64,000 bases of DNA, taken from contig CAVPDE010000016.1 in NCBI GenBank assembly GCA_963702565.1, positions 320,034-384,033 on the forward strand, in the 5' to 3' direction. The notes below the pieces were generated by a model. The model ran no database searches. It was not told where the DNA came from and worked only from the letters and a program-made list of their open reading frames with translations. This DNA comes from an uncultured delta proteobacterium (GTDB taxonomy: Bacteria > Desulfobacterota > DSM-4660 > Desulfatiglandales > HGW-15). A program made the position numbers and the translations under genes. Positions 5,996 to 64,000 of this stretch are shown here, piece by piece (within the stretch, counting starts at the first letter, position 1; every line of letters starts with the position of its first letter).

Positions 5996-6191
5996 GGTGC
6001 CTCCTACTAACTCAGCCGACTCCCTGAGCGACAGGTTGGGAATGGATAAAGCGTATTATGCGCCTACTTGAGATATGCTTAACGCATCATAGGCGATGAA
6101 CGGGGGAAACACAAGCTGAGGGAGGGAGGTCACCCCTTGAACCTGCCTTTATGTCGAAAATGATATAACCATTTAATATTATTAATCTTTA

Positions 6192-6220
6192 TTGACATTC
6201 CTGCCCGTGCGATATATCAG
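6192..6220 (+). promoter_or_regulatory. putative sigma70 promoter of AOR-1
   Basis: TTGACA at 6192-6197 and a TATATC/ATATCA -10 candidate at 6213-6219 (spacer 15-16 nt), about 100 nt upstream of the AOR-1 start. Confidence 0.4.
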
Positions 6221-6316
6221 TAGGTCGACAAGCCGAAAAGATCGACTCAACAAGAGGGAAGAATCTGTTTCCATCAACAACGCAGTAGGCTTAACCACCT
6301 TAAAAGGAGGGTATTC

Positions 6317-8059
6317 ATGGATAAGATTTTGAGGATCAACATGGGCGCAGCTGGCGGACCTAAAGCAACGGTAACCCCTGTCGGAGCCTATGCCGGGCTC
6401 GGCGGAAGAGCGATGACTTCCGGGATCGTTTCCAAGGAAGTGCCTCCTCTGTGTCATCCTCTTGGTGAGGACAACAAACTCGTCATAGCCCCGGGCATGC
6501 TGAGCGGAACAACGGCGGCCATGTCGGGCAGGCTTTCAGTGGGCTGCAAGAGCCCTCTCACAGGAGGCATCAAGGAAGCCAACGCTGGAGGCCAGCCCTC
6601 GCAGATGCTCGCAAGGCTCGGCTATGCCGCAATCGTTTTGGAGGGTAAGCCCAAAGAAGGCGCCCTCTACAAAGTGCTCATCAACAAGGACGGGGTGAAG
6701 ATCACCTCCGCCGACAATCTCAAGATGCTGGGCAACTACGACACGGTCGAAAAAATCAAGGCTGAATTCGGTGAGAAGATCGGCGTGATCTCCATCGGGC
6801 CTGCCGGTGAAATGAAGCTGGCCGCGGCTTCCATTGCCTGCACGGACATGGAACTCCGGCCCACACGGCATGCCGGCCGGGGCGGCGTGGGCGCGGTCAT
6901 GGGCAGCAAGGGCGTCAAGGCGATCGTGATCGACGATGCAGGGGCCAAGATGCGAAGCCCCAAGGACCCTGAAGCCTTCAAAGATGCCACGAAAAGATGG
7001 GTGGAAGGACTTCGAAAGCATCCGGTCACGGGTCAGGGCCTTCCTGCGTACGGGACCAACGTGCTCACCAACGTGATCAACGAGGCCGGTGGCTATCCCA
7101 CCAAGAACTTCATGTGGGGCCGATTCGACACCTGCTCCAAGATCAGCGGGGAAACCCAGGCAGCCCTGGAAAATCAGAGAGGCGGCGAGGGTTCCGCCAC
7201 CCATGGCTGCCACCGCGGCTGCATCATCCGCTGCTCTGGAACCTTTTACAACAAGGATGGCCAGTATCTCACCAAGCAACCCGAGTATGAGACCGTCTGG
7301 GCTCACGGCGGGAACTGCGGTATTGACGACCTGGATTCCATCGCCATGCTGGACCGCCTGGACGACGACTTCGGCGTGGATACGATCGAAATGGGAGCGA
7401 CCATCGGGGTAGCCATGGAAGCCGGATTGGCCAAGTTTGGCGATGCAAAGGCGGCCATCAACCTGGTCAAAGAAGTGGGCAAAGGCACTCCCCTCGGCAG
7501 GATTCTGGGAAGCGGTGCCGCTGTCACAGGCAAGGTGTTCGGAGTTGAGAGAGTTCCGGTGGTCAAAGGACAATCCATGCCTGCCTATGATCCCCGCGGG
7601 GTGCAGGGCATTGGCGTCACCTATGCCACAACCACTATGGGCGCGGATCACACCGCAGGATACGCAGTGGCCACCAACATCCTCGGCGTAGGAGGCAAGG
7701 TCGATCCTCTCAAGCCTGAAGGCCAGGTGGAGCTTTCGCGGAACCTTCAGATTACCACCGCAGCAGTAGATTCCACTGGCATGTGCCTGTTCATCGCGTT
7801 TGCAGCCATGGATCAGCCTGAGACCTTCCAGGCTCTCATTGACACCATCAACGCCTTCTACGGTTTGAAGCTCACGGGCAATGACGTGACTGAACTGGGG
7901 AAATCCGTCCTGAAGAAGGAAAGGGATTTCAACGCGGCGGCAGGGTTCACGTCAAAGCACGACCGTCTGCCCGACTTCTTTAAGAAAGAACCGCTTCCGC
8001 CTCACAACATCACCTTTAAAGTGACGGATAAGGATCTGGACTCAGTGTTCAACTGGTAG
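6317..8059 (+). CDS. aor: tungsten-type aldehyde:ferredoxin oxidoreductase family protein (AOR-1)
   Basis: 580 aa. N-terminal MDKILRINMG..., internal CHRGCIIRC cluster region and TTTMGADHTAGY pterin-binding region, all typical of the AOR family. GGAGG RBS is present. Confidence 0.9.
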   Translation: MDKILRINMGAAGGPKATVTPVGAYAGLGGRAMTSGIVSKEVPPLCHPLGEDNKLVIAPGMLSGTTAAMSGRLSVGCKSPLTGGIKEANAGGQPSQMLARLGYAAIVLEGKPKEGALYKVLINKDGVKITSADNLKMLGNYDTVEKIKAEFGEKIGVISIGPAGEMKLAAASIACTDMELRPTRHAGRGGVGAVMGSKGVKAIVIDDAGAKMRSPKDPEAFKDATKRWVEGLRKHPVTGQGLPAYGTNVLTNVINEAGGYPTKNFMWGRFDTCSKISGETQAALENQRGGEGSATHGCHRGCIIRCSGTFYNKDGQYLTKQPEYETVWAHGGNCGIDDLDSIAMLDRLDDDFGVDTIEMGATIGVAMEAGLAKFGDAKAAINLVKEVGKGTPLGRILGSGAAVTGKVFGVERVPVVKGQSMPAYDPRGVQGIGVTYATTTMGADHTAGYAVATNILGVGGKVDPLKPEGQVELSRNLQITTAAVDSTGMCLFIAFAAMDQPETFQALIDTINAFYGLKLTGNDVTELGKSVLKKERDFNAAAGFTSKHDRLPDFFKKEPLPPHNITFKVTDKDLDSVFNW

Positions 8060-53818: not shown

Positions 53819-54091
53819 CTAGCCTCCGGAAAGCATCATGGTGAGGTGAATCTCATCCCCGTCCTTGACCGGCTTGGCGAGCTCGTTGGGATAGGCGCTC
53901 TGGAGATTCAAGTAGATTTCAACGATATTGGAGAGTTTTCCATTCTTGCCAAAAATGGAAGACTCCATTGCAGGATATTTTTTTACCAGGTTCTTCAAGC
54001 ATTCTCCCACGGTCTTCCCGTCCAATTCTACGATTTCCTGACCGTTCGTGAATTGCCGGAGTGTCAAATGAAGATGTACTTTGACAGCCAA
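53819..54091 (-). CDS. MoaD/ThiS-family ubiquitin-like sulfur carrier (copy 2)
   Basis: 90 aa with a TTG start after AAGGAGGG. It ends ...DGDEIHLTMMLSGG (Gly-Gly). Confidence 0.75.
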   Translation of the reverse strand: MAVKVHLHLTLRQFTNGQEIVELDGKTVGECLKNLVKKYPAMESSIFGKNGKLSNIVEIYLNLQSAYPNELAKPVKDGDEIHLTMMLSGG

Positions 54092-54170
54092 TTGTTCTCC
54101 CTCCTTATGCCATCCTCAAGAGTATGCGGCCTGACTCCTTGAAAACACCCGGATACAAGGCGCGCTTTTC

Positions 54171-54236
54171 AGTGACGAGTGACGAGTAACACGTGCCGAG
54201 ATAAAGACATGGAGTTGTTGCTCGTTACTTGTCACT
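54171..54236. repeat. word-repeat hairpin (GTGACGAGT words) between moeB-like and moaD-like genes
   Basis: agtgacgagtgacgagtaac (54171-54190) pairs with gttgctcgttacttgtcact (54217-54236). Confidence 0.7.
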
Positions 54237-54304
54237 TGCCCCTTCCATGTGACGATGAGCGCAACGCCGCTGAAAGGCGTTTTGCAGCATCCTGCCGCAC
54301 TAAA

Positions 54305-55036
54305 TCACAGGTGAGCACAATGCTCACACTCTGGATTTCGCTGCACCTTGAACTCGGTGAACTTCAGGTTCAGCCCGTCGTAGGCCAGCAACCGGTTTGC
54401 AAGAGGGTCTCCGATTCCCACCAGGACCTTGATCACTTCCGTTGCCTGGATGCAGGCGATCACTGCAGGCGTCACTCCGATCACCGGAAATTTCGATTCC
54501 GGCACCGGGCCGCGGTAAAGGCATCTCAAGCAGGCTGTTTTGCCGGGGATCACGGTCATGGCCCGTCCTTCAAAACCGTTGACGGCCCCATGGACAAAGG
54601 GGACCCCCTGGCCGATCGCCGTTTTGTTCAGCACATAGCGGGTGGGTAAATTGTCCATAGCATCGACGATCAGATCAAATCCCGCAGTGAGTTCCGAAGC
54701 ATTCTCCTCCGAAATCGTCACACTCAACGTCTCGACGGTCACATTCGGATTGAGTTTATTAAGCTTCTCCTGGGCCGACTCCACCTTTTGTCTTCCCACG
54801 TCGGCTGTCCAGTGGGCCACCTGTCGATTCAGGTTCGTGAGGTCCACCTTGTCGTGGTCCACGATCCGGAGGTGGCCTACCCCCGCCGCGGTCAGATAGA
54901 TCGAAACAGGGGAACCAAGACCCCCTGCCCCGGCAATGAACACTTTGGCCCTTTTCAGCTTCTCCTGGCCTTTTTCCCCGATTTGAGGGATCATGATCTG
55001 GCGGCCGTATCGTTCAAGCTCTTCACCCGTTAACAT
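54305..55036 (-). CDS. moeB: MoeB/ThiF/HesA-family adenylyltransferase (copy 2)
   Basis: ERYGRQI, FIAGAGGLGS, DHDKVDLTNLNRQ. A C-terminal CLRC...CEHC zinc site is present. Confidence 0.85.
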   Translation of the reverse strand: MLTGEELERYGRQIMIPQIGEKGQEKLKRAKVFIAGAGGLGSPVSIYLTAAGVGHLRIVDHDKVDLTNLNRQVAHWTADVGRQKVESAQEKLNKLNPNVTVETLSVTISEENASELTAGFDLIVDAMDNLPTRYVLNKTAIGQGVPFVHGAVNGFEGRAMTVIPGKTACLRCLYRGPVPESKFPVIGVTPAVIACIQATEVIKVLVGIGDPLANRLLAYDGLNLKFTEFKVQRNPECEHCAHL

Positions 55037-55237
55037 GACCTCTCCTTGCTTTTGCGGGGGCGGTGATTACTTTCCGGCATTGACGCTGTTTTTCTTTACA
55101 CGACAGAACAAGCTGTTGCGACTTGAGCCGCGACGCTCCACCAAATTGTTGTGTTTTCAAATTAAGACAAGTTGGCTCCGTTTTCAAGCCCTATCAAGGC
55201 GCTTGAAAAAAGGCTGCTCCAGATGAAAAGAGAGGGC

Positions 55238-56599
55238 ATGGTCATTGTAACCGGCTACGTGGAAGGGGAGAGCTACGGTCTGCTCGGCCCCCAACTGGCC
55301 GCAAGCATCATTCAAGAAAACTCGATCTACGACTGCATCGTGGTAACTCTCCCCAGGCAGTTTGACAAGAACATCTTCAAAAAGACCCTGCAGGATTACT
55401 TCGGCAACGAACGGCCGGTCATCGGTTTCTCTTATCTCGCCGGTCGAACCGATCTTTTCTCCCTTGCCCGCGAACTCAAAGAAGAGGGCTCTTTCACTAT
55501 TCTCGCAGGCCCCCAGGCAGACGTCGACTTCGGGGGGGAGCAGGGCCGGCAAGATCATCCCCACTATTTCCAAGGCCTTTCGGATTGCTTTTCCACGGCC
55601 ATTCACGGACCGGCTGAGCAGATTCTTCCTTTCCTGAACCGTCCGATAGATCACAAAAGGTTCTCGGACCCGGGCCTCCTCAGAACCTCTTTCACCTGGA
55701 ACGAAGAATTCCTGACAAAGGTCCGATGGGACAATCTGTACAGGCTAGGCGACGCCGGGCTCACTCCTTTGCCCGTTACAACAGGTCAGGTGCTTCAGCA
55801 GATCGGCTGCCCTCATGCGAGTCGAACACGGACGATTGAGATCGACTACCCTGTCGCCTTCAGAAAGACCGAAAAGGACAAAGTGGGCCTTTCCCTGAAA
55901 GGATGCAGTTTTTGTGATGTGGCAATCGACAAGGGGTTTCATGGAGCCTTGAGCCTCGACGCGGTCATGGAACAGATTCAGAGACTCCCGGACGGCGAGG
56001 AGGACCGCAAGATCCCTTTTGAACTGATCAACGAAAATGCCGCTCCAGGCCTTCCGGCCCTTCTGGCCGGAGTTCGAGCGAAGGGGATCCGCCTTTCCCG
56101 GATCAGCCTGACCCTGCGGGCGGATTGGTTTGTCTTGGGGGAAAAGGATCTGAGGGAAACGCTTGCTCTGGCCGGCGCCTTGGATGTCCAGGTTCTCTTG
56201 GGTTCCATGGGTTTCGAATCTTTCGACGACCGCATTCTCTCCAATCTTCACAAAGGGCTCGATGCGGAGACCAACCTGCGAGCCGTGAAACTCATGAGGG
56301 GTCTCAAGAGCGAGTTCCCCCGCCAATGGGCTTATGCCAGGCAGGAAGGCGCGATTCACGGTTTCATTCACCCCACACCGTGGGACACGCCTGAAACGGA
56401 ATCGAACAACGCAAGAATCATTTCTCTCTACGGATTGCTCAACGACATTCTCCCGGAGCACAGCGTCCCTCTCATCATCCATCATGCCTCGGCACTGGGG
56501 GACTGGGCCAGGGAGATCGAGAAGAGAGAAGACGTCCAGTTCAAGCGGGAGGGCTCGACCATAGGCTGGTGGCAGGTGGGAGAGAGGTTTATTATATAA
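55238..56599 (+). CDS. B12-binding-domain/radical-SAM-like protein with degenerate cluster motif
   Basis: N-terminal Rossmann-like region (VIGFSYLAG...FTILAGPQAD), then LSLKGCSFCDV where the first Cys of CxxxCxxC is Ser. The nearest upstream Cys is 31 residues away (C at 55808-55810). ATG 55238 follows GAGAGGG; the ORF is open to 55172. Confidence 0.5.
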   Translation: MVIVTGYVEGESYGLLGPQLAASIIQENSIYDCIVVTLPRQFDKNIFKKTLQDYFGNERPVIGFSYLAGRTDLFSLARELKEEGSFTILAGPQADVDFGGEQGRQDHPHYFQGLSDCFSTAIHGPAEQILPFLNRPIDHKRFSDPGLLRTSFTWNEEFLTKVRWDNLYRLGDAGLTPLPVTTGQVLQQIGCPHASRTRTIEIDYPVAFRKTEKDKVGLSLKGCSFCDVAIDKGFHGALSLDAVMEQIQRLPDGEEDRKIPFELINENAAPGLPALLAGVRAKGIRLSRISLTLRADWFVLGEKDLRETLALAGALDVQVLLGSMGFESFDDRILSNLHKGLDAETNLRAVKLMRGLKSEFPRQWAYARQEGAIHGFIHPTPWDTPETESNNARIISLYGLLNDILPEHSVPLIIHHASALGDWAREIEKREDVQFKREGSTIGWWQVGERFII

Positions 56600-56685
56600 T
56601 GGAGTATTGGAGTGATGGAGTACTGGAGTAATGGTAAACAGAAGAATCCATTGGCCGAACCTCCCCATTCTCCAACCCTCCAGCA
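56600..56685. repeat. 8-bp tandem word repeat (TGGAGTRN x4) with degenerate inverted partner
   Basis: tggagtat tggagtga tggagtac tggagtaa at 56600-56631. The partner ccattctccaaccctccag lies near 56663-56685. Confidence 0.65.
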
Positions 56686-56722
56686 GTTGAACGGTTTACA
56701 AAATCAATTCAGGAGGAATTTC

Positions 56723-56917
56723 ATGAGAGTGAAGATTGATTACGATCTTTGTATGGGAGACAGGAACTGCAACAAGGTTTGCCCGGAGGTCTTTCAGTAC
56801 GATGAGGACAAACTCCTGTCCCGGGTTCTCGTGGATGTGGTCCCGAAGCATCTCGAGGCTCTGGTCGAGAAAGCCGCCAGAGAGTGCGCGCCCGGAGCGA
56901 TTGTTATTCTCGGATGA
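56723..56917 (+). CDS. fdx: small monocluster ferredoxin with CxxDxxC...CP motif (Pyrococcus-Fd type)
   Basis: 64 aa with ATG after AGGAGG. CMGDRNCNKVCP ... ECAP. The Asp sits at the second ligand position. Confidence 0.75.
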   Translation: MRVKIDYDLCMGDRNCNKVCPEVFQYDEDKLLSRVLVDVVPKHLEALVEKAARECAPGAIVILG

Positions 56918-56974
56918 CCTCAGACCGCTGAGCTGGACTCCCTGCTGAACATGGATACGAAATAGATGCCTGAT

Positions 56975-57050
56975 GGTACACGGGTCACGGCGCACGGTAC
57001 ACGGGAAAACCCCGAGGCAAATTGGTGTCGGCCGTGCGCCGCGCACCGTC
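56975..57050. repeat. word-repeat hairpin (GGCGCACGG/GTACACGGG words) between convergent genes
   Basis: ggtacacgggtcacggcgcacggtacacggg pairs with gtcggccgtgcgccgcgcaccgtc. It is a likely bidirectional terminator. Confidence 0.6.
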
Positions 57051-57051
57051 T

Positions 57052-57681
57052 CTATTCCGTCGTCACCTTCATTTTCCACGTTCTCTGACCGGACTTGAAC
57101 GAAACGTAGTCTTTTCCGATGTCGGTCACTGAAATCCCCTCGATCATGCCGCCCGGCCGTACAATGACCCCGTTGATGACGGCAAAGCGGCTCTCCGGGG
57201 CATCAGACCAGACAATCGCCTGGAGTTGGAACTCCGGATCCTGGAGCGAGGGACCTTCCTCTTGACCTGTGGTGGAATCAGGGGAGCCCTTCTTTTCTTT
57301 CTTGGGCGAGGCTTGGTACGGTGAACGTTCTTCCTTCGCAGGAGCCGCGCTCGGAGAAGCCGCTTCGCTGCGCTTTCGTCTGTCTTCCAAAAGCGGATCC
57401 TTAGCCTTTGCCACTGGTTTTGAAGGCGACGGGTTTGACTTCACCGCCGCAGTGGACGACTTGGGGATCAGAAAGGGTTTGTAACTGAACACCACCCATA
57501 ACACCACCGCCAGCGTCAGCAGAGGCAAGAGGACGATCAAAACCTCTTGAGTCGTCCAGCTTCTTTTGTACTGTTCCCGGATCGCTTTCCTGGCGTCGAG
57601 TTTCTTCGGAACCGGCAGGGTCTCACTCCGCTGCACCGACTCGTTTTCAACTCTTCGCAATGCCTTCAGGATTGCACTCAC
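57052..57681 (-). CDS. GspB/ExeB-like bitopic protein
   Basis: N-terminus MSAILKALRRVENE (GspB-like), one TM, a Pro/Ser/Lys-rich linker and a C-terminal FAVINGVIVRPGGMIEGISVTDI region like the T2SS-B C-domain. Confidence 0.6.
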   Translation of the reverse strand: MSAILKALRRVENESVQRSETLPVPKKLDARKAIREQYKRSWTTQEVLIVLLPLLTLAVVLWVVFSYKPFLIPKSSTAAVKSNPSPSKPVAKAKDPLLEDRRKRSEAASPSAAPAKEERSPYQASPKKEKKGSPDSTTGQEEGPSLQDPEFQLQAIVWSDAPESRFAVINGVIVRPGGMIEGISVTDIGKDYVSFKSGQRTWKMKVTTE

Positions 57682-57725
57682 AGTTGCGCCCTCGTGTCAC
57701 CACAACCCATTTGCAGGCCGACGAT

Positions 57726-59501
57726 CTAATCTGAGAGACGGGGGATGTTGAGCGCCGCTTTTTCATTGTAAAGAGCGATCTTGGTCAGGGGCCCCACCAC
57801 CCCGTCAACAGGGATGCCGTGCCTTCGTTGCACCTGCTTGATCGCTTTTGCCGTCTTGTCGTCATAGGTCGGCGTGATGTCCAGCTCCTTGTGGCCCAGG
57901 TCGTGCATGAACATCTTCAGCGTCAGGACGGCGTCTCCCGAATTCTGAGAAGACAGAGTCGCGGGCAGGTTGAGGAAATCCTTCCACGCCACGTAAGCGA
58001 CGCGCGACCAGTAGGAGGTGAGCTGCTCCCTGTCCACCTGGATGCCTTCCTCCAACGCTCCACCCAGGAGGACCGCATCCTCCTCGTTGGTTTTGGCGAG
58101 GGTCAGATATCGGGGCGTGCCTCCTCCCTGTAGATAGAACTCCAGAACAGCAGGCAGATTCCGCTTGAGAAGGGAATCAAAATCTCCTTCCACACGCTGG
58201 ATCAAGAGCCCGTTTTGTCGAGCCGCCACTTTGAAAAAAGCTTGGTCATCCTCCATATCATTGAGCAGTGTACTGTTCTCAGGGGTCCCTGACCACAGAT
58301 CGATGACCGCCTTCATGGCGAGCGCCCGCGAGGAACGGCGGTTGAACTTTGCCAGGATCCCTCCAAGATCTGAAACGGCCAAGGGAGAGAACTGCTTGTG
58401 TGATTTCTGGCCTCCACTTCCCTCTCCGCTTTCCCTGCTCAGATCCGAGCTTTCCTGGGTCATGGCGAAGGCGCCTCCACCGGGCACCGGTTTATCCGCG
58501 GAATCGACTTTCTGCGTCACCTTGGGTCTTTCGATCTCTCCCGACTCGATCAGGCTGTTGATCTTCAGATCCACGGAGCGATGAATGATGAGGAACAGAG
58601 AGGCCAGATAGAGCACAGCCACGAAAACACCGAGGACCACCCCCATGGACAGAGAGAGCCTCTTTCTCTTTTGCAGGGTCAGGCGCTTCACATCCCCCCG
58701 CGCCGCCAATTCCCTGATCGAGGCTCTGGCAATCGGGCCTGTGATCTTTTTCCGGTTCAGCCCGTAGGCGGTCAAGAGGGCTCGATCGCAGGAGATGTTG
58801 ATCAGCCTGGGGATACCGCCCGAGTATCTGTAGATCGCCCGCAAGGCCCCTCGCGTAAACCGGACTTCCGCTTTTTGAGAGGCCACCTGAATGCGGTGGT
58901 CAATGTACTCTTTGGTCTCCTTATGGCTGAGCGGGGTCAAGTAACAGCTCAGGGTAATTCGCTGGCCCAGTTGTCGGAGCTCGTGGGAGTCCAGCATCTC
59001 CCCCAGCTCTGGCTGGCCCACCAGAATGATCTGGATCAATTTGCTCGTCGTGGTCTCGAGATTGGAAAGAAGCCGAAGCTGTTCCAGAACATCCTTGTTC
59101 AGATTCTGGGCCTCATCGATGATCAGGACCACCTTGGTGCCTTCCATTCTTTTTTTTATCAGGAAGGCATTCAGTTCATCGATGAGTTCTTTGACACTGC
59201 TCCCGCTGGAGGCAACTCCAAACTCATCGTTAATGGCTTTCAAGAGTTGAAGGGAATCGAGCTTGGGATTGAAAATGTAAGCGGCTTCGGTGTGCTCATC
59301 CAGATTCTCAAGCACGGCCCTGCAGAGCGTGGTTTTACCGGTTCCCACCTCGCCCGTGATTTGCACAAAGCCGTCCCCCTGAGAGATGGCGTAAACCAAG
59401 TGGGCCATGGCCTCTTCGTGACTGCGGCTGAGGTAAAGGTAAGCCGGGTTCGGCACCAGCTGAAAGGGTCTTTCCTTGAATCCGTAGAAGCTGTTATACA
59501 T
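57726..59501 (-). CDS. ExeA/GspA-like AAA+ ATPase with TM segment and C-terminal peptidoglycan-binding domain
   Basis: MYNSFYGFKERPF, Walker A GEVGTGKTT, Walker B LIIDEAQ, TM, and C-terminal GIPVDGVVGPLTKIALY (PG_binding_1-like). The ORF is open to 59531. Confidence 0.8.
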   Translation of the reverse strand: MYNSFYGFKERPFQLVPNPAYLYLSRSHEEAMAHLVYAISQGDGFVQITGEVGTGKTTLCRAVLENLDEHTEAAYIFNPKLDSLQLLKAINDEFGVASSGSSVKELIDELNAFLIKKRMEGTKVVLIIDEAQNLNKDVLEQLRLLSNLETTTSKLIQIILVGQPELGEMLDSHELRQLGQRITLSCYLTPLSHKETKEYIDHRIQVASQKAEVRFTRGALRAIYRYSGGIPRLINISCDRALLTAYGLNRKKITGPIARASIRELAARGDVKRLTLQKRKRLSLSMGVVLGVFVAVLYLASLFLIIHRSVDLKINSLIESGEIERPKVTQKVDSADKPVPGGGAFAMTQESSDLSRESGEGSGGQKSHKQFSPLAVSDLGGILAKFNRRSSRALAMKAVIDLWSGTPENSTLLNDMEDDQAFFKVAARQNGLLIQRVEGDFDSLLKRNLPAVLEFYLQGGGTPRYLTLAKTNEEDAVLLGGALEEGIQVDREQLTSYWSRVAYVAWKDFLNLPATLSSQNSGDAVLTLKMFMHDLGHKELDITPTYDDKTAKAIKQVQRRHGIPVDGVVGPLTKIALYNEKAALNIPRLSD

Positions 59502-59521
59502 GCACTGCTCTCTCGAGAGGA

Positions 59522-60682
59522 TTAGGTCCACCTACCGGGTATCACATGATTGCAGAATTTGCAATGTCCCTTGTTCAAGTTGACCTGTTTGAGCGAATAC
59601 CCGTTTCGTTCCACAAGGATTCTCCTGCAGTTCGGGCAGTAGGTATTGCAGCCCTGGTGGCCGGGCACATTCCCCAGGTAGACAAAATGGATCCCTTCCG
59701 ATAAGGCCACGTCTCTCAGTTTCTCCAGGGTTGCCACGGGCGTCGGAGGCAGCCGCGTCAGCCGGTATTGGGGAAAGAACCGGAGCAGGTGAAGAGGATA
59801 GTCCGGACCGAGTTCCCTCAATATCCATCCACACATTCTTTTGATCATCTCGGGGTCTTCCACATACGTCGGCACCACGAGAGTGGTTATTTCGAGCCAG
59901 ACCCCCTGCTCGTGGAGGATCTGGAGCGTGTTGAGCACAGGCTGGAGCGTTCCCCCGTTCAGAGACCGATAGAGGCGGTCATCGAAAGACTTGAGATTGA
60001 TGTTTGCACCGTCCAGGACGTTGCAGAGTGCAAGGAGAGGCTCGCGATTGATGTAGCCGTTGGACACGAGAACGTTCTTGAGTCCTGCCTCTTTTCCGAG
60101 CCTGGCCGTATCCACCATATACTCGTAGTACGTGATGGCCTCCGAATACGTGAAGGCAATCGACGGGCTTTCCCTCCTGATGGACTCCCGTACCACCTCT
60201 TGCGGGAACAACTCGATGGACTGAACCTCCTCGGGTTTTTTCTGGGAGATTTCCCAGTTCTGGCAATTCAGACACCGGAAATTGCAGCCCGTGGCGGCGA
60301 CGGAAAAGATGGATGTGCCCGGATGAAAGTGGTTGAGAGGCTTTTTCTCAATGGGGTCCACGTGAACCGAGCAGGGGTTTCCATAAGTCAGAGAATAGAG
60401 CTTGCCGTCAATATTGACCTTGGATCGGCAGACGCTGCGATCTCCCGGTTCCAAGAGGCAGAGGTTGGGGCACACCTGGCACTGAACGCTCTTGCCGTCC
60501 GAGGTGTAGTAAAAACCTTCTACAGACCACTTCCAGGGCCTTGCCGGCGCATCTTTTCTGAAGATCTCGCCCCGGATACTCTCCCCCTTGGTCTGACCGA
60601 AGCAGAGCCCGGTGCCGGCACAAAGAACTCCTGAGAGGCCGAGCCCCAGAGTCTTCACAAATTCTTTACGGCTCATCCTCAT
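59522..60682 (-). CDS. AmmeMemoRadiSam-system radical SAM enzyme with N-terminal Tat-like signal
   Basis: CQVCPNLCLLEPGDRSVCRSK, AATGCNFRCLNCQNWEISQ and a C-terminal CPNC...CKFC ribbon. The N-terminus is MRMSRKEFVKTLGLGLSGVLCAGTGLCFG. Confidence 0.8.
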   Translation of the reverse strand: MRMSRKEFVKTLGLGLSGVLCAGTGLCFGQTKGESIRGEIFRKDAPARPWKWSVEGFYYTSDGKSVQCQVCPNLCLLEPGDRSVCRSKVNIDGKLYSLTYGNPCSVHVDPIEKKPLNHFHPGTSIFSVAATGCNFRCLNCQNWEISQKKPEEVQSIELFPQEVVRESIRRESPSIAFTYSEAITYYEYMVDTARLGKEAGLKNVLVSNGYINREPLLALCNVLDGANINLKSFDDRLYRSLNGGTLQPVLNTLQILHEQGVWLEITTLVVPTYVEDPEMIKRMCGWILRELGPDYPLHLLRFFPQYRLTRLPPTPVATLEKLRDVALSEGIHFVYLGNVPGHQGCNTYCPNCRRILVERNGYSLKQVNLNKGHCKFCNHVIPGRWT

Positions 60683-62787
60683 GAAGCGGTCCGCCCACGC
60701 GGAAAGAGTACGATGATGTTACTTGAAATCTTGACGAGGATCAAAAAAATTATGGCCATCTGGATCCCCAGCATAGGGATAAGGATCGCTCCCGTGGCCA
60801 AGGTCCCCACTGCAGCGCCCGTAAGATCCGCTGCCAGGCACCCGGCTGCCGGGCTCTCCTTTTCACCGATGAGGCCGGTGGCAAGGGGAAACTGATACCC
60901 GCAGAAAAAGGAGAAGACAACGCCATAGCCCAAAAAATAAAACTGCGGGATATCCCCCTCGGAAAAGCTGATTCCCACATAGAAGACGACCAAAAGGCTG
61001 AAAAGAATGATCTCAGAGACGATAAAAGGAATCCATCCTCTCCCTTTGAAAAGGCTGCCGAACAGGGCCCCGGGAAGCAAGCCCATGAGAAAAGCGGTCA
61101 CAATGGCTCCGAGCTTCAGGTAGATGTATCCGTACATCACCTGGAACGTAAAGATCACCAGCATCTCCACCCCCATGTTCGCAAGACCCGTGGTAAAGAG
61201 CACGACCTCCTCCCTGCGCAGAAAGATCAGGTACAGCATCGTGAGGCACAAGGCCACGAGGCCGAAGACTTTGGGTGAGGAGCCGTGCTTGGCGAACCAC
61301 TCCTGAAACAAGGCGGTCATGATCCTGGGCTCAAAGTCGGTATTGGCCGGAGCCTTCGGGTCCAGCTTTTTCTTGAGCTCTTCGATTCGTTCTTGCGTCA
61401 CATTGCCGTGAAAGAAGCCCTCCACATAGGACGTGGTCACGGATTTCAGGGCGAGTCGCGCCGGCACGTCCGTCCACAGTTCACCGTCTCTGCAGAGAAA
61501 GTAAGCCTTTTCCCCCGGAAGGATGACCACGTTTCGAAAATGCTGTCTGGCCGTATTGTAGAGGACGGAAAGCTTGCTTCTCTGGATATCGCTCAGGTAG
61601 TTCGGCGAGGTGTCCACGCTGAAAGAAAGAATTCCCTCGTTTTGAAGGACCTTCTTGACCAGAGAGAAAAACTCGGAGGTGAAAAACCGGTTGAGTTGAA
61701 AGGTGTCAGGCTCAGGAAGATCCACGATAACCGCATCATACTTCTTGGAAGCCCCTTTGATGTAATGCCGTCCGTCATCATGGATGATGGCAAGAGACGG
61801 AGACTGAACAATCAAACCGAGCTCCTGCGCAACCCTTGTAAGATTCGGATCCAGTTCCACGTAGTCCACGGAAGACGGGGCATACTTGGCCACTTCTGCA
61901 AGCGTTTCCCCCAAACCCCCGGAGACGAGCAGAACGCTTCTCACCTCCTCCAGCTGGCTCAGGGCATAGTGGATTTTCTCCTCGCTGTTCACGATATCCG
62001 CGTCGGAATAAAAGGGGGTTCCCGACTCCCAGAAAGTGTGCTGGGGTCCTTCCTTGGTGATGACGATTCTGCCATAGGGTGACTCTACATACCGAACGAT
62101 CTCTCCGTACTGCGGGGACAGGGTGACCTTCTCAAAATGGCTGTTGAGAGAAAACAAGCAGAAAAGGCCGGTGAACACAAGGGTCAAGAAAAAAAACACG
62201 TATCGCCTAAAAGCGAGAAAAAGCAGAAGCACAGCCACAATCAGGAGCCCTGAAGTGATCGCGACGGTCACAAAGGGGCTAAAGGAGTAAACGAGGACAA
62301 AGCTGAACAGGATTCCACCCGTGATGTCCCCGATGCTGTCTGTGACATAGAGGCCGCCGGACGTGAAGTCCTCCCACCGTTCGTTCAGCACCCTCAGGGA
62401 ATAAGGAAGGATGAATCCGAGCAGCAGACCATAGGGGGATATGGTCGCGAGGATGTAAAGGGCCGTTTGATTGAATCCCGGTGAAGCCCCATGCACAAAA
62501 ACACTTTCTCTCAAGGTGCGGATCAGAATGAGCTGAGGGAGAGGCCACAAAGCGAGAAGGCCGGAGGCAAGGGCAAAAACCGTTACGGAAGGCCGGCGAA
62601 AGGCCCTGGCCATGAAGCTTCCAAGGCCGGTGAGCAGCAACCAAGAAAAAAGGACTAGGGAAATGGTGATCTCATTGCCGTGGAACTGAGACAGGAACTC
62701 GCGCACGGTCACCAGTTGGACCGCAATGGAAGAAACACCGGTCCCTATGATCGCCCAAAGGATGAATAGTTTCAGATGCCTTTTCAC
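60679..62787 (-). CDS. polytopic membrane protein with central spermidine-synthase-like domain
   Basis: 702 aa. About 7-8 N-terminal and 5-6 C-terminal TM helices flank VLLVSGGLGETL ... YVELDP ... DAVIVDLPEPDT (SpeE-like SAM/dcSAM fold). Confidence 0.75.
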   Translation of the reverse strand: MKRHLKLFILWAIIGTGVSSIAVQLVTVREFLSQFHGNEITISLVLFSWLLLTGLGSFMARAFRRPSVTVFALASGLLALWPLPQLILIRTLRESVFVHGASPGFNQTALYILATISPYGLLLGFILPYSLRVLNERWEDFTSGGLYVTDSIGDITGGILFSFVLVYSFSPFVTVAITSGLLIVAVLLLFLAFRRYVFFFLTLVFTGLFCLFSLNSHFEKVTLSPQYGEIVRYVESPYGRIVITKEGPQHTFWESGTPFYSDADIVNSEEKIHYALSQLEEVRSVLLVSGGLGETLAEVAKYAPSSVDYVELDPNLTRVAQELGLIVQSPSLAIIHDDGRHYIKGASKKYDAVIVDLPEPDTFQLNRFFTSEFFSLVKKVLQNEGILSFSVDTSPNYLSDIQRSKLSVLYNTARQHFRNVVILPGEKAYFLCRDGELWTDVPARLALKSVTTSYVEGFFHGNVTQERIEELKKKLDPKAPANTDFEPRIMTALFQEWFAKHGSSPKVFGLVALCLTMLYLIFLRREEVVLFTTGLANMGVEMLVIFTFQVMYGYIYLKLGAIVTAFLMGLLPGALFGSLFKGRGWIPFIVSEIILFSLLVVFYVGISFSEGDIPQFYFLGYGVVFSFFCGYQFPLATGLIGEKESPAAGCLAADLTGAAVGTLATGAILIPMLGIQMAIIFLILVKISSNIIVLFPRGRTAS

Positions 62788-62860
62788 GCCGGTGTCCTGC
62801 TCCGGAAATCCGCTCCTGAAATGATCTCGCTAGGGCGCCTCCTCGGCTTTGCCTTGCGCA

Positions 62861-63586
62861 TCATTCTTCTTCGAACGCCTGAACCTGGTACGTGTGGACT
62901 TCGAGCTTGTCATAGGCCCATGCATCTCCTGCCAGCCCTGCCTTGAGGCAAAGATGGCTCAGGAAGTCTTTCTTGTTGGGGAGCTGTTCCCAGACCTGAG
63001 GAAGAAAGGTGGCCTGATGATATCCTTGGCGGATGATCAGGCCGTCCGTCCCGGGTCTCAGCTTGGCAAGGAGATCATTGGCATCGGTATACGGCAGCGG
63101 CTTTGGCGCCGTGAGAATGCTCACCTCAACTTTGATCTTTTCAAACTCATTTTGACTGAGAGGCCTGAATCGCGGATCTCGAAAGGCCGCGTTCATGGCA
63201 TTGACTCTCACCCCTTCGATCAGAGACTCCTGAGGAATGATGTGGCCGATGCACCCTCTCAGAGCGCCGTTGAGGGTGAGGGTCACAAAGGTCCCGCGCC
63301 TTTCCTGAAATTTTGGGGAACTCAACGAGTCCTGATCGCTCGTGTCTTTCGGATGGAACAGGGCTTTTTGAATGGTCTTTCTCGCCGTCTCCACAAGGTG
63401 TTTCCCTTCTTCCCCCGTCAGCTTGTCGGTTTCGCTCATCGCCCCCTCCTTGACCTTTTCTTTGATCCTGTGCGCTCCCCTCTCTTCAGCGCCCGCTCCC
63501 ACGCTCATCGCAAGGACAAGAATCCAGGACGCCAGGATCATCGAGACAGATCGAGCAACGCCGTGAGAGAATTGAGCAGGTCGCAT
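62861..63586 (-). CDS. AMMECR1-domain protein (AmmeMemoRadiSam system protein A) with N-terminal signal/anchor
   Basis: RGTFVTLTLNGALRGCIGHI and AFRDPRF motifs. N-terminal hydrophobic segment MILASWILVLAMSVGAGA. Confidence 0.85.
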   Translation of the reverse strand: MRPAQFSHGVARSVSMILASWILVLAMSVGAGAEERGAHRIKEKVKEGAMSETDKLTGEEGKHLVETARKTIQKALFHPKDTSDQDSLSSPKFQERRGTFVTLTLNGALRGCIGHIIPQESLIEGVRVNAMNAAFRDPRFRPLSQNEFEKIKVEVSILTAPKPLPYTDANDLLAKLRPGTDGLIIRQGYHQATFLPQVWEQLPNKKDFLSHLCLKAGLAGDAWAYDKLEVHTYQVQAFEEE

Positions 63587-63652
63587 CCACTCGCCTCCTG
63601 CTATTATTCTCCCCTGATTCCAAGGGGTTTGTCAAAAACATTCGTGGAAGTC

Positions 63653-63683
63653 TCAACTTCTCTCAAGTTTAGAGAGAAGTTGA
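63653..63683. promoter_or_regulatory. perfect 12-bp stem hairpin upstream of the AMMECR1 operon
   Basis: tcaacttctctc (63653-63664) / gagagaagttga (63672-63683) with a 7-nt loop. No U-tract on either strand. Confidence 0.5.
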
Positions 63684-63826
63684 AAATCCGAAATCCGAAG
63701 CACGAAATCCGAAACAAGCACGAAGCTCAAATGACCAAAATTCGAAACAAAACCCATGCGAAGCATAGATCTGCATTCGTTTTGGTCATTCGAATTTTGA
63801 ATTTTGAAATTGTTTCGAGTTTCGGC
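63683..63826. repeat. CGAA-word hairpin repeat, copy C
   Basis: aaatccgaaatccgaagcacgaaatccgaaac words. aatgaccaaa (63730-63739) pairs with tttggtcatt (63781-63790). The right arm is ttcgaattttgaattttgaaattgtttcgagtttcgg. Confidence 0.65.
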
Positions 63827-64000
63827 CTGCCCCGGCGCGACATCACCAGCGCGTAACGGAGTTACATAGGCTCACCGGTTCCTGTTCAAATGACACTATC
63901 CTGCACGCCGGGTCTGGGCTGGGGATTTTTAATTTCGAATTTGTTTGCGAGCAAGCGCCCCACGTGCGCTCAGCAATCTGCTAGACAAGGCGGTACAATG

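Follow-up and report, generated by a model that had tools for sequence, protein, structure and literature searches.

AmmeMemoRadiSam systems comprise an AMMECR1-like protein A (TIGR04335), a Memo-like protein B (TIGR04336) and a radical SAM enzyme (TIGR04337). In the window studied here, a stretch of 64,000 nucleotides (64 kb) from an uncultured delta proteobacterium, the first and third of these are encoded in one operon, with a gene for a polytopic MFS/SpeE-like protein between them and two ExeA- and GspB-like genes downstream. This raises the question which of the five genes form one system and on which side of the membrane their products would act. Five minus-strand open reading frames were found at the coordinates given in a first-pass annotation, and its family calls were upheld for all of them by HMM searches, for the GspB-like protein as a borderline case:

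62861..63586, minus strand: long form (241 aa) of AMMECR1, protein A of the AmmeMemoRadiSam system (TIGR04335, PF01871)
60679..62787, minus strand: SpeE-like protein, polytopic, 702 aa, of the 'fused MFS/spermidine synthase' type (PF01564, NF037959)
59522..60682, minus strand: AmmeMemoRadiSam-type radical SAM enzyme (rSAM), 386 aa (TIGR04337)
57726..59501, minus strand: ExeA-like AAA+ protein containing a TM segment, with PG_binding_1 at its C-terminus (AAA_22, PG_binding_1); ATG 59501 (MYNSFYGFKERPF)
57052..57681, minus strand: GspB-like protein of 209 aa with a single TM segment, partner of the ExeA-like protein (PF16537)

AMMECR1 scored 214 bits against TIGR04335 (cutoff 99; domain at residues 63-238) and 175 bits against PF01871, and rSAM reached 350 bits against TIGR04337 (cutoff 220; core at residues 57-385), with the activases YjjW, PflA and NrdG as its next-best NCBIfam matches. 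The SpeE-like protein matched PF01564 (Spermine_synth, 66.5 bits) and NF037959 (52 bits, cutoff 40). For the ExeA-like protein, AAA_22 (99 bits) and PG_binding_1 (45 bits) were recognised, and TIGR03015 was narrowly missed (316.9 bits, cutoff 324.5); the GspB-like protein scored 27.7 bits, just below the cutoff of PF16537 (28.4) and also below that of NF037978 (100). The junctions described earlier agreed with a nucleotide-level reading: AMMECR1 and the SpeE-like gene are 73 nt apart, the SpeE-like stop overlaps the rSAM start in an ATGA, and 44 nt lie between the ExeA-like and GspB-like genes. Of the two starts proposed for the ExeA-like protein, ATG 59501 was retained, being conserved in the relatives L004 and L008, and GTG 59531 was dropped. 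Only about 20 nt separate the rSAM stop from this ATG and a convincing terminator is absent between them; the ExeA-like gene is probably co-transcribed with the genes before it.

Possible control elements were located upstream of AMMECR1:

63606..63635, minus strand: promoter-like site, TTGACA, 18-nt spacer, GAGAAT (10/12 match), 20 nt upstream of the AMMECR1 start
63653..63683, no strand assigned: 12-nt inverted repeat without mismatch, TCAACTTCTCTC / GAGAGAAGTTGA, located shortly before the -35 element
63689-63749, no strand assigned: three 14-nt direct repeats, CGAAATCCGAAGCA

The promoter-like site is weak evidence, because such sites occur in this region at chance frequency (two found, 3.3 expected). 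The inverted repeat is a possible candidate operator.

The extent of the conserved unit was assessed in a neighbourhood survey of SpeE-like family loci from about 80 uncultured Desulfobacterota species, with SpeE-like identities of 50-90%. AMMECR1 lay upstream of the SpeE-like gene in 66 of 67 evaluable loci and rSAM downstream in 63 of 69, and no other universal neighbour was found in this survey. Linkage is thus far beyond chance for AMMECR1, the SpeE-like protein and rSAM and not for ExeA/GspB, and the conserved unit is this trio, not five genes. The proposed joining of an AmmeMemoRadiSam core to a polytopic SpeE-like protein was supported; conservation of the linkage in relatives held for the trio and failed for ExeA (3/49 loci).

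Memo, already reported missing locally, was found by two validated probes neither in the window nor in 83 related loci (1.07 Mb in total), and none lies within +/-8 kb of the locus in about 80 related species. In other phyla, the rSAM/SpeE-like pair is accompanied by DUF362 with a Tat signal and by a Memo-AMMECR1 fusion that also bears a signal. Among 25 Tat-type loci with at least 3 kb on both sides, 18 contained the SpeE-like gene, 16 Memo and 12 both, and in L163 and L168 the TIGR04335, TIGR04336 and TIGR04337 families all scored above their curated cutoffs. Since the SpeE-like family accompanies Memo there, it is an extra member and not a Memo substitute; the idea of a stand-in was not supported, as SpeE-like protein, Memo, AMMECR1, rSAM and DUF362 are combined in other phyla. 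The pairing with rSAM recurs in Desulfobacterota, Planctomycetia, Aminicenantes and many metagenomic lineages at 28-31% identity and with rearranged gene order. From these distributions, the window lineage is read as a Memo-less derivative of a broader system.

Whether this system faces the envelope was judged from the N-termini of its soluble members:

63440..63586, minus strand: AMMECR1 N-terminal extension, residues 1-49, with the signal-peptide-like hydrophobic segment SMILASWILVLAMSVGAGA
63437..63457, minus strand: internal AAGGAGG ribosome-binding site and ATG (M50 at 63439) in AMMECR1
60590..60682, minus strand: Tat-like signal of rSAM, residues 1-31, S-R-K-E-F-V-K (residues 4-10) followed by GLGLSGVLCAGTGLCFG

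The frame upstream of the AMMECR1 domain was open for at least 35 codons in 66/67 loci (25/134 control frames) and the extension was hydrophobic in 66/67 (5/134 controls); its amino-acid sequence itself is not conserved, but the signal-like extension is under selection. The internal start codon is also kept (68/71 loci; SD core in 61/71), with Lys always AAG and Glu nearly always GAG in the SD region and variable codons following. This would predict a short, signal-less, cytoplasmic form, which counts against export. The 56-residue N-extension of rSAM lies beyond the TIGR04337 model and carries [ST]-R-K-x-F-[LIVM]-[KRQ] in 72/73 loci. Like Tat-exported Fe-S and cofactor proteins, such as hydrogenase small subunits and the Rieske proteins with their uncleaved Tat signal anchors, it shows the S/T-R-(R/K)-x-F-L-K motif followed by a mildly hydrophobic, G/A/S-rich h-region. 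In contrast to these proteins, the window subfamily has RK where RR would be expected (72/73 loci); this speaks against export, as does the lack of an obvious AxA cleavage site. Canonical RR motifs occur on related rSAMs of other phyla; they were present in about 25 of 150 rSAM representatives and in 80 of 119 close profile matches, and most rSAM relatives have canonical SRRxFLK signals with AxA sites. In L087, tatC, rSAM, the SpeE-like gene and Tat-DUF362 are consecutive. Memo bears a signal or lipobox in 35/39 loci. DUF362 lacks a signal in L085 and seven Desulfobacterota loci, against the export reading. The export signals previously suggested for both soluble core proteins are real, conserved features.

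The SpeE-like protein, a family with more than 1100 homologues, was modelled with AF2 (pLDDT 79.9, pTM 0.79) and divided as follows:

62149..62784, minus strand: TM1-TM7, residues 2-213; the first MFS-like repeat comprises TM1-6, and TM7 takes the chain outward
61288..62106, minus strand: soluble SpeE-fold domain, residues 228-500, predicted extracytoplasmic, with structure matches
60706..61272, minus strand: TM8-TM14, residues 506-694; TM8 takes the chain inward and TM9-14 form the second MFS-like repeat

TM1-5 align with TM9-13 as a parallel repeat (hhalign, E 3e-5), and the 14 helices represent an MFS-like 6+6 repeat plus two extra helices, TM7 and TM8, which, because the repeat is parallel, serve to place the SpeE domain outside. 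No Pfam MFS model was matched in the HMM search; the TM1-TM7 block alone matched MFS transporters in Foldseek (TMq 0.45-0.60, probability at least 0.97) with weak E-values of 0.07-0.7. A topology bias of K+R (16.5 versus 4.7) was seen in 87/87 sequences, including cross-phylum homologues, and a complete SpeE fold is predicted on the outer face. With membrane-bound polyamine aminopropyltransferases (PRK03612, NF037959) the protein shares an N-terminal polytopic domain followed by a SpeE fold, whose best PDB matches are the aminopropyltransferases 1uir, 6o64 and 1inl; it differs from them in its second seven-helix block after the SpeE domain and in the constant linkage of its family to TIGR04337 rSAM. 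The remaining acids of cofactor binding and catalysis are retained (E311, D338, D356 and E359). Motif I reads SGGLGE instead of the GGG(D/E)G of true SpeE, and the acidic residue that selects dcSAM is Leu in the window and Leu, Val or Phe across the family. Such a change to Leu is of the type seen in the SAM-using putrescine N-methyltransferase, and a domain devoid of this residue therefore probably binds SAM. In cross-phylum homologues, N or Q replaces the first catalytic Asp, which counts against the explanation given next.

As our best guess, this is a radical SAM system that faces the envelope and is supplied by way of the MFS/SpeE-like protein. Tat would move or anchor the folded, cluster-loaded rSAM at the outer face, and AMMECR1, with its Sec-type signal or anchor, would follow via Sec. 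The MFS-like part might carry SAM or else the substrate through the membrane and hand it to the protein's own outward adenosyl-binding domain, which probably binds SAM, and radical and group-transfer chemistry would then act on an envelope or periplasmic substrate. A point against this explanation is that neither SAM nor a low-potential reductant is known to be accessible outside the cytoplasm. We know of no radical SAM enzyme that is exported by Tat, and the literature searched contained none. As a conceptual analogue only, AT3/TmAT transmembrane acyltransferases are described as presenting cytoplasmic acyl-CoA to an extracytosolic acceptor (PMC12423673); these polytopic proteins make a cytoplasmic cofactor available at the outer face, with an unrelated fold and a different cofactor, and the analogy is ours.

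Originally, all five proteins were proposed to form one envelope- or peptidoglycan-directed modification machine, a reading now considered improbable. The tight packing described above fits it, as do the PG_binding_1 domain of the ExeA-like protein, periplasmic and on the side of the membrane where the trio products are predicted to be, and the position of ExeA directly after rSAM in L008 and after the SpeE-like gene in L012. The ExeA-like protein shares AAA+, one TM segment and periplasmic PG_binding_1 with the secretin-assembly pair ExeA/ExeB (GspA/GspB) of Aeromonas/Vibrio T2SS and the XrtA/PEP-CTERM-associated ATPase TIGR03015, and, as in ExeA/ExeB, a small bitopic GspB-like partner follows. 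As had been noted, no secretin, T2SS or T4P genes were present among the window's large ORFs, a difference from ExeA/ExeB that also suits the five-gene reading. However, L012 apart, ExeA accompanies the trio in only 3 of 49 loci with enough downstream sequence. Its occurrence is limited to a single small subclade and to L021, in which 2.3 kb lie between; the GspB-like gene goes with ExeA in L004, L008 and L021. In the closest, 90%-identical relative L004 an insertion of ~235 nt separates it from rSAM, and it is absent from every cross-phylum version. By gene order, ExeA/GspB is thus a subclade-specific downstream neighbour outside the conserved system. The envelope-directed part of the proposal remains reasonable; its peptidoglycan-directed part came from the non-conserved ExeA neighbour only.

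Another reading, unlikely but to be taken seriously, holds that rSAM works at the cytoplasmic face, its N-terminus being a membrane tether and its catalytic domain not exported, and that it modifies AMMECR1 or Memo pre-proteins, or else a substrate bound to the membrane protein, ahead of their export, much as anaerobic sulfatase-maturing enzymes act on sulfatases that have yet to be exported. SAM is cytoplasmic, the related glycyl-radical activases act on protein substrates, and the window's motif, invariably RK, also fits. In a minority of related systems (L107, L110, L122, L130, L136, L143), rSAM lacks any N-extension beside a Memo-AMMECR1 with a lipoprotein-type signal, and in L095, L101, L113, L160 and P0399 it has a plain hydrophobic N-segment, which counts against export because Sec is unusable for an Fe-S protein. 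On the other hand, the canonical signals with AxA sites in most relatives and the adjoining tatC of L087 point to Tat, a Tat or Sec signal-anchor puts the following domain outside, and the same location is predicted for DUF362, Memo-AMMECR1 and the adenosyl-binding domain of the SpeE-like protein. That the SpeE-like gene encodes an ordinary membrane-bound polyamine aminopropyltransferase, next to AMMECR1 and rSAM through inherited synteny without shared function, is very improbable: its soluble domain has the complete fold, D356 and E359 occupy the positions of the Thermus SpeE catalytic acids and PRK03612 is its best NCBIfam match, but all SpeE equivalog cutoffs were missed widely (141 vs 472, 67.5 vs 260, 56 vs 249.55), the dcSAM-selecting residue is lost, the domain is predicted outside the cytoplasm and the rSAM pairing recurs across phyla despite the divergence. 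Scarcely credible is a misprediction of the export signals with an entirely cytoplasmic system, as in canonical AmmeMemoRadiSam systems. The internal start of AMMECR1 and the RK motif would agree with it, but the Tat motifs (rSAM, DUF362), the Sec or lipobox signals (Memo, AMMECR1), and the K+R bias and extra helices of the SpeE-like protein oppose it; it is disfavoured because four independent components, each conserved across deep divergence, indicate the same side.

We hold with high confidence what the conserved unit is and how far it extends, and that it belongs to an export-tagged AmmeMemoRadiSam branch. The full mechanistic chain of export, SAM passage and outer-face chemistry is tentative; within it, we infer that the proteins are in fact exported, that SAM crosses the membrane and what kind of substrate is acted on. 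Combining both parts, it is about evenly balanced that the window may represent a Memo-less, reduced member of a widespread, uncharacterised branch of AmmeMemoRadiSam systems targeted to the cell envelope.

The first-pass annotation had placed five open reading frames on the minus strand, and all five were found exactly as placed. Reading of the junctions confirmed its gap of 73 nt from the AMMECR1 stop to the GTG that opens the gene of the 702-aa protein, the ATGA overlap in which the gene of the 702-aa protein and that of the radical SAM enzyme (rSAM) share stop and start, and the 44-nt spacing from the ExeA-like to the GspB-like gene. For the ExeA-like frame, two starts had been offered, 59531 or 59501. 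A three-way DNA alignment with two relatives (L004 and L008) identified the ATG at 59501 (MYNSFYGFKERPF), about 20 nt past the rSAM stop, as the conserved start, which rules out the GTG at 59531. Curated models agreed with the family calls for all genes, with the following scores:

62861–63586, minus strand: AMMECR1; PF01871, and TIGR04335 with 214 bits (cutoff 99, passed).
63437–63457, minus strand, inside the AMMECR1 gene: internal ribosome-binding site AAGGAGG with ATG (residue 50, 63439).
60679–62787, minus strand: 702-aa SpeE-like membrane protein; PF01564, and NF037959 ('fused MFS/spermidine synthase') with 52.3 bits over residues 56–422 (cutoff 40, passed); the SpeE equivalogs were all missed (PRK03612, 140.9 against 472; PRK00811, 67.5 against 260; TIGR00417, 56 against 249.55).
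59522–60682, minus strand: rSAM; TIGR04337 with 350.1 bits over residues 57–385 (cutoff 220, passed), runners-up being glycyl-radical activases.
57726–59501, minus strand: ExeA-like protein; AAA_22 with 99 bits (residues 51–180) and PG_binding_1 with 44.6 bits (residues 531–587); TIGR03015 narrowly missed (316.9 against 324.5).
57052–57681, minus strand: GspB-like protein; PF16537 a borderline miss (27.7 against 28.4), NF037978 missed (27.7 against 100).

By curated cutoff, rSAM and AMMECR1 are both members of the AmmeMemoRadiSam families, and the AMMECR1 gene lies in the same operon as the rSAM gene with one gene between. At the level of the system, which is defined as AMMECR1 plus Memo plus rSAM, the window departs locally from the definition because Memo is missing. 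Two validated probes, human MEMO1 (TIGR04336, 180 bits) and the bacterial Memo of locus L088, gave no phmmer match at E ≤ 10 or E ≤ 0.01 in the window and 83 related loci (1.07 Mb), as had been claimed for operon and window. Viewed through the relative L001, the sequence past the point matching nucleotide 64000 consists of a gap of about 690 nt and then unrelated genes, without Memo. The membrane protein lies inside the NF037959 subfamily and outside the SpeE equivalogs. The ExeA-like protein shares the AAA+ ATPase, the transmembrane segment and the periplasmic peptidoglycan-binding domain with the ExeA/ExeB (GspA/GspB) pair of type II secretion (T2SS), but the genomic tie of that pair to a secretin/T2SS operon is not seen within the window. 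In agreement with the first pass, no secretin, T2SS or pilus gene was found among the large reading frames of the window, nor a secretin/T2SS link in the flanks of L001.

The remaining large reading frames of the window are housekeeping or metabolic (aldehyde:ferredoxin oxidoreductases, a sigma-54 two-component pair, S1, RecJ, an M23 peptidase and HflK/C-type proteins). On the plus strand at 55172–56599 lies a 475-aa frame with a CSFCDV motif and no Pfam or NCBIfam match, followed by a small ferredoxin gene (56612–56917, plus strand). Clustering of flanking frames showed that eight loci keep this 475-aa frame, which is encoded on the strand opposite to the SpeE-like gene and about 4 kb downstream of it. 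ThiS- and ThiF/MoeB-like genes occur a few kilobases from the system both in the window (53819–55036) and in the unrelated locus L087 (3287–4881), which is probably a coincidence.

Upstream of AMMECR1, positions 63587–64000 form a 414-nt intergenic region which is repeat-rich and free of long open reading frames. It holds a promoter-like site (TTGACA-18-GAGAAT), a perfect 12-nt inverted repeat (63653–63683) immediately next to the -35 element, and, at 63689–63749, three direct repeats of 14 nt (CGAAATCCGAAGCA-like); several longer, imperfect inverted repeats were seen as well. These repeats may be sites for a regulator. Rfam gave no match in 56900–64000. Scans for intrinsic terminators and promoters performed at chance level; they neither back nor oppose a single transcript and leave its ends undefined.

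The 702-aa protein belongs to a family of proteins of about 700 aa with more than 1100 matches. A pattern scan, with one genome taken per species, yielded 80 loci with a SpeE-like identity of 50–90%, nearly all from uncultured Desulfobacterota (Desulfatiglandales, 'Desulfobacteraceae' MAGs and Ca. Desulfacyla), and linkage was counted by tblastn with the five proteins of the window. Of the evaluable loci, 66 of 67 have AMMECR1 directly upstream of the SpeE-like gene, and 63 of 69 have rSAM directly downstream. ExeA is present in just 3 of the 49 loci having at least 4.5 kb of downstream sequence. The ExeA-positive loci (the window, L001/L004, L008 and L012) form one small cluster on the SpeE-like tree, with L021 nearby, and in the 90%-identical relative L004 an insertion of about 235 nt separates rSAM from ExeA. 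Therefore, the conserved unit is the trio of AMMECR1, SpeE-like protein and rSAM, which also occurs in the complete genomes CP070840.1, OY762721.1 and CP070657.1. Downstream of the trio, ExeA/GspB are a neighbour specific to the lineage; in this genome they are probably transcribed together with it. All-against-all clustering of the flanking reading frames revealed no other universal partner; the next clusters consisted of antisense shadows and of housekeeping genes in synteny, endonuclease III among them.

The first-pass annotation had read the five genes together as an envelope- or peptidoglycan-directed machine and had proposed a survey of their neighbourhoods. From this reading the AMMECR1/SpeE-like/rSAM unit stands, both of its linkages being conserved, whereas ExeA/GspB as conserved members are ruled out by the 3/49 linkage and the restriction to one small subclade. 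A machine of five genes is thus considered very unlikely in general, and could still hold as an elaboration specific to that subclade.

Some loci deviate in detail. The insertion in L004 (L004:11264–11500, aligned to about 59502–59521 of the window) starts with a tandem CATTGAACATTGAACA, has no counterpart in the window or in L008, and looks like a small inserted element. L011, L016, L027, L042, L076 and L012 keep the SpeE-like gene and mostly also AMMECR1, but their available downstream sequence contains no rSAM; ExeA directly follows the SpeE-like gene in L012, and in L027, AMMECR1 has no signal extension.

An AlphaFold2 model of the SpeE-like protein, computed from a 15-sequence alignment (pLDDT 79.9, pTM 0.79), has seven helices (residues 2–213), a soluble domain (230–500) and seven further helices (506–694). 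In Foldseek, the soluble domain matches the SpeE fold, an N-terminal beta-hairpin domain followed by a Rossmann domain, and its best 50 PDB matches are all aminopropyltransferases (1uir, 6o64, 1inl; E 1e-8 to 1e-5, TMt 0.53–0.63). Sequence alignment to the Thermus and Synechococcus SpeE proteins indicated that E311 (the acid that binds ribose), D338 (the aspartate of DDGR) and the two catalytic acids of D-L-x-E-P, D356 and E359, are retained, VDLPEP aligning with IDLTDP of 1uir in the D-x-x-(D/E)-P segment. The homologues from other phyla in L084, L085 and L087 have N or Q in place of the first catalytic aspartate. The acidic residue of GGG(D/E)G, however, which, going by what is established for SpeE and plant putrescine N-methyltransferase, selects decarboxylated SAM and shuts out SAM, is replaced by leucine (SGGLGE, aligned with GGGEGA of 1uir and GGGDGG of 6qmm), and across the family this position is L, V, F or S. 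The protein thus has the fold and the catalytic acids in common with polyamine aminopropyltransferases, but lacks the selecting acid and misses the equivalog cutoffs. Because this acid is lost, the alignment suggests that the ligand is SAM.

Lysine and arginine are distributed very unevenly over the loops, with 16.5 ± 1.9 on the side of the N- and C-termini against 4.7 ± 0.9 on the side of the domain. This bias holds in 87 of 87 sequences, including the three cross-phylum homologues (20:2, 18:5 and 22:4). In a profile–profile comparison (hhalign), TM1–5 align with TM9–13 (E 3e-5, probability 73%, 147 columns), the helices running in the same direction. MFS transporters are parallel 6+6 repeats with cytoplasmic termini, and the register found here therefore points to a parallel 6+6 repeat of the same kind; a 7+7 inverted-repeat transporter fold is ruled out by it. 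TM7 and TM8 are evidently two extra helices that bring the inserted domain to the other face. By two independent arguments, the positive-inside rule and the repeat register, the SpeE-like domain is predicted to lie outside. Modelled alone (AlphaFold2, pLDDT 85), the N-terminal block has PDB matches that are nearly all MFS proteins (PepT/POT, OATP, FLVCR, STP10, NorA, DgoT), with TMq of 0.45–0.60 and a probability of at least 0.97, yet E-values of only 0.07–0.7, and no Pfam MFS model matches the SpeE-like protein. Given strong probabilities and weak E-values, assignment of the membrane part to the MFS is likely but not proven. The polytopic SpeE-like partner of the first pass is thereby specified as a 6+1/SpeE fold/1+6 protein with a strong charge bias.

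Export signals had also been claimed for both soluble proteins, and both were found to carry signal-type N-termini conserved among the relatives. In rSAM, the 56 residues ahead of the TIGR04337 model are conserved at the protein level: M-T-R-K-E-F-L-K followed by a hydrophobic stretch rich in G, A and S is common to about 120 cluster representatives (69–89% identity), and the motif [ST]-R-K-x-F-[LIVM]-[KRQ], in its RK form, occurs in 72 of 73 genome loci (S-R-K-E-F-V-K in the window). An exhaustive search of 50%-identity representatives recovered similar extensions with canonical twin-arginine motifs (SRRDFIK, SRREFLK, TRREFLQ) in about 25 of the nearest 150 families. A profile built from these RR-type families matched 119 proteins from WOR-3, Aminicenantes, Planctomycetia, Brocadiales, Calditrichota and Chloroflexota, of which 80 carry RR, 14 KR, 8 RK and 17 none of these. 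The subfamily of the window always has RK and lacks a clear cleavage site. A tatC gene adjoins the system in L087 as the single case, a contextual hint that a Tat route may be used; with the TatC probe, none was found in the Desulfobacterota or metagenome loci.

In AMMECR1, the in-frame region upstream of the domain is open over at least 35 codons in 66 of 67 loci (against 25 of 134 control frames) and contains a strongly hydrophobic 11-residue window in 66 of 67 (against 5 of 134). The sequence of this extension itself is not conserved, and an open, hydrophobic and variable extension is as expected of a signal peptide or anchor. Inside the gene, AAGGAG(G) is kept 6–9 nt ahead of the residue-50 ATG in 61 of 71 loci and the start codon in 68 of 71. 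The site is conserved at the nucleotide level, Lys always being AAG and Glu nearly always GAG, with codons after it varying freely. Such a conserved ribosome-binding site makes a short isoform likely too, so that a signal-less cytoplasmic AMMECR1 is probably made beside the signal-bearing long form.

The membrane protein is also found beyond the Desulfobacterota. In L084 (a planctomycete), L085 (Aminicenantes) and L087 (a JGI contig), rSAM adjoins a protein of 729–792 aa which is a full-length homologue (28–31% identity over about 700 residues, E 1e-63 to 1e-86), and a DUF362 protein is encoded nearby, with Tat signals on two of the three (TRREFIR, SRRDFLK). L087:7250–12541 has tatC, an RR-signal rSAM (after a 32-nt gap), the SpeE-like gene and a Tat-signal DUF362 gene in this order on one strand. 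A metagenome scan with the RR-type alignment added 80 further loci. Of the Tat-type loci, 25 have flanks of at least 3 kb on either side; SpeE-like genes are present in 18 of these, DUF362 in 12, Memo in 16, AMMECR1 in 16, and SpeE-like together with Memo in 12. A typical order is DUF362, rSAM and Memo-AMMECR1, with a convergent SpeE-like gene. By curated HMMs, L163 and L168 encode DUF362, rSAM (TIGR04337, 384 and 356 bits), a single Memo-AMMECR1 fusion (TIGR04336, 263 and 274 bits; TIGR04335, 181 and 185 bits) and a SpeE-like protein of 812 or 852 aa. In 35 of 39 loci, Memo, the N-terminal part of the fusion, is provided with a signal peptide or lipobox; on DUF362, an RR motif is usual. DUF362 is known just as a clan-mate of the LarA N-terminal domain.

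Since SpeE-like genes stand beside Memo across phyla, an export-tagged branch of the AmmeMemoRadiSam system has the polytopic SpeE-like protein as a recurrent additional member; a replacement of Memo by this protein is ruled out by the many loci having both. The Desulfobacterota trio is a derivative without Memo locally, with the signal peptide retained on a free-standing AMMECR1. Two further observations concern gene arrangement. In one Desulfobacterota subclade (L014, L015, L024, L025, L026, L033 and L068), a signal-less DUF362-like gene of about 435 aa lies convergent and directly downstream of rSAM, echoing the DUF362 partner of other phyla. In L106 (about 6000–8029), the frame upstream of the rSAM core continues out of Memo C-terminal sequence (…KYANSGDITGDKNQVVGYAAF…), which suggests a Memo-rSAM fusion protein in this lineage.

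The conserved trio, the signal-type N-termini, the 6+1/SpeE/1+6 architecture with its charge bias and the cross-phylum association with Memo-AMMECR1 and DUF362 are directly established. Built on these, a possible chain of events would be that folded rSAM is moved or anchored to the outer face by Tat, that AMMECR1 follows by Sec, that the membrane protein, through its MFS-like part, hands SAM or a substrate to the outward adenosyl-binding domain, and that the enzymes then act on an envelope substrate. The complete chain is proposed only tentatively. That the whole AmmeMemoRadiSam branch works outside the cytoplasm, with Tat-exported rSAM, exported AMMECR1/Memo and DUF362, and SAM delivered by the MFS-like protein and captured by the outward SpeE-fold domain, is conceivable but doubtful as well.

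Several observations fit poorly with a purely periplasmic rSAM. The rSAMs of the metagenome loci L107, L110, L122, L130, L136 and L143 have no N-terminal extension, and the adjacent Memo-AMMECR1 carries a lipoprotein- or Sec-type signal, which suggests a maturase-before-export scheme in these lineages. They are part of the evidence for the main rival, in which an activase-like rSAM works at the cytoplasmic face, either on pre-proteins of AMMECR1/Memo or on a substrate held at the membrane; this is judged rather improbable. The rSAMs of L095, L101, L113, L160 and P0399 have a plain hydrophobic N-terminal segment, a misfit because the Sec route is unusable for an Fe-S enzyme. DUF362 is without signal in L085 and in the seven Desulfobacterota loci where it is convergent after rSAM. 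The RK motif without a clear cleavage site and the internal start of AMMECR1 in the subfamily of the window also count against the purely periplasmic model, and neither SAM nor a strong reductant is known to occur outside the cytoplasm.

Conservation of AMMECR1 and Memo extends from bacteria to humans, and both are linked to disease, yet no biochemical function is known for either. The chief lead on their role comes from the three-gene AmmeMemoRadiSam system of bacteria. Our literature searches found no link of AMMECR1/Memo systems to SpeE-like membrane proteins, DUF362 or Tat export of radical SAM enzymes, and nothing relevant on AmmeMemoRadiSam, periplasmic radical SAM, fused MFS/spermidine synthase or AMMECR1 with spermidine synthase; the one study likely to bear on this is Burroughs et al. 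2019 (JBC 294:10211, PMC6664185), which is cited in PMC7159879 for 'Memo-Ammecr1 systems', reportedly ties contexts of Memo to nucleotide-base and isoprenoid modification, and may already have described the present context.

The variant reached from the window is coherent and widely distributed, with export tags on rSAM, AMMECR1/Memo and DUF362, and is tied to a transporter-like membrane protein whose SAM-type binding domain is predicted to face outward. The observation is solid, and the wider pattern, in which a radical SAM system bearing export tags has a transporter-like partner with a SAM domain, is surprising. Should the localisation be other than predicted, another explanation of the conserved signals is needed, for example a maturase-plus-export pathway. 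If the prediction is right, the system would provide the first example of radical SAM chemistry outside the cytoplasm and overturn the assumption that such chemistry is purely cytoplasmic; it would indicate an envelope substrate for Memo and AMMECR1, and provide a tractable bacterial entry point to their functions.
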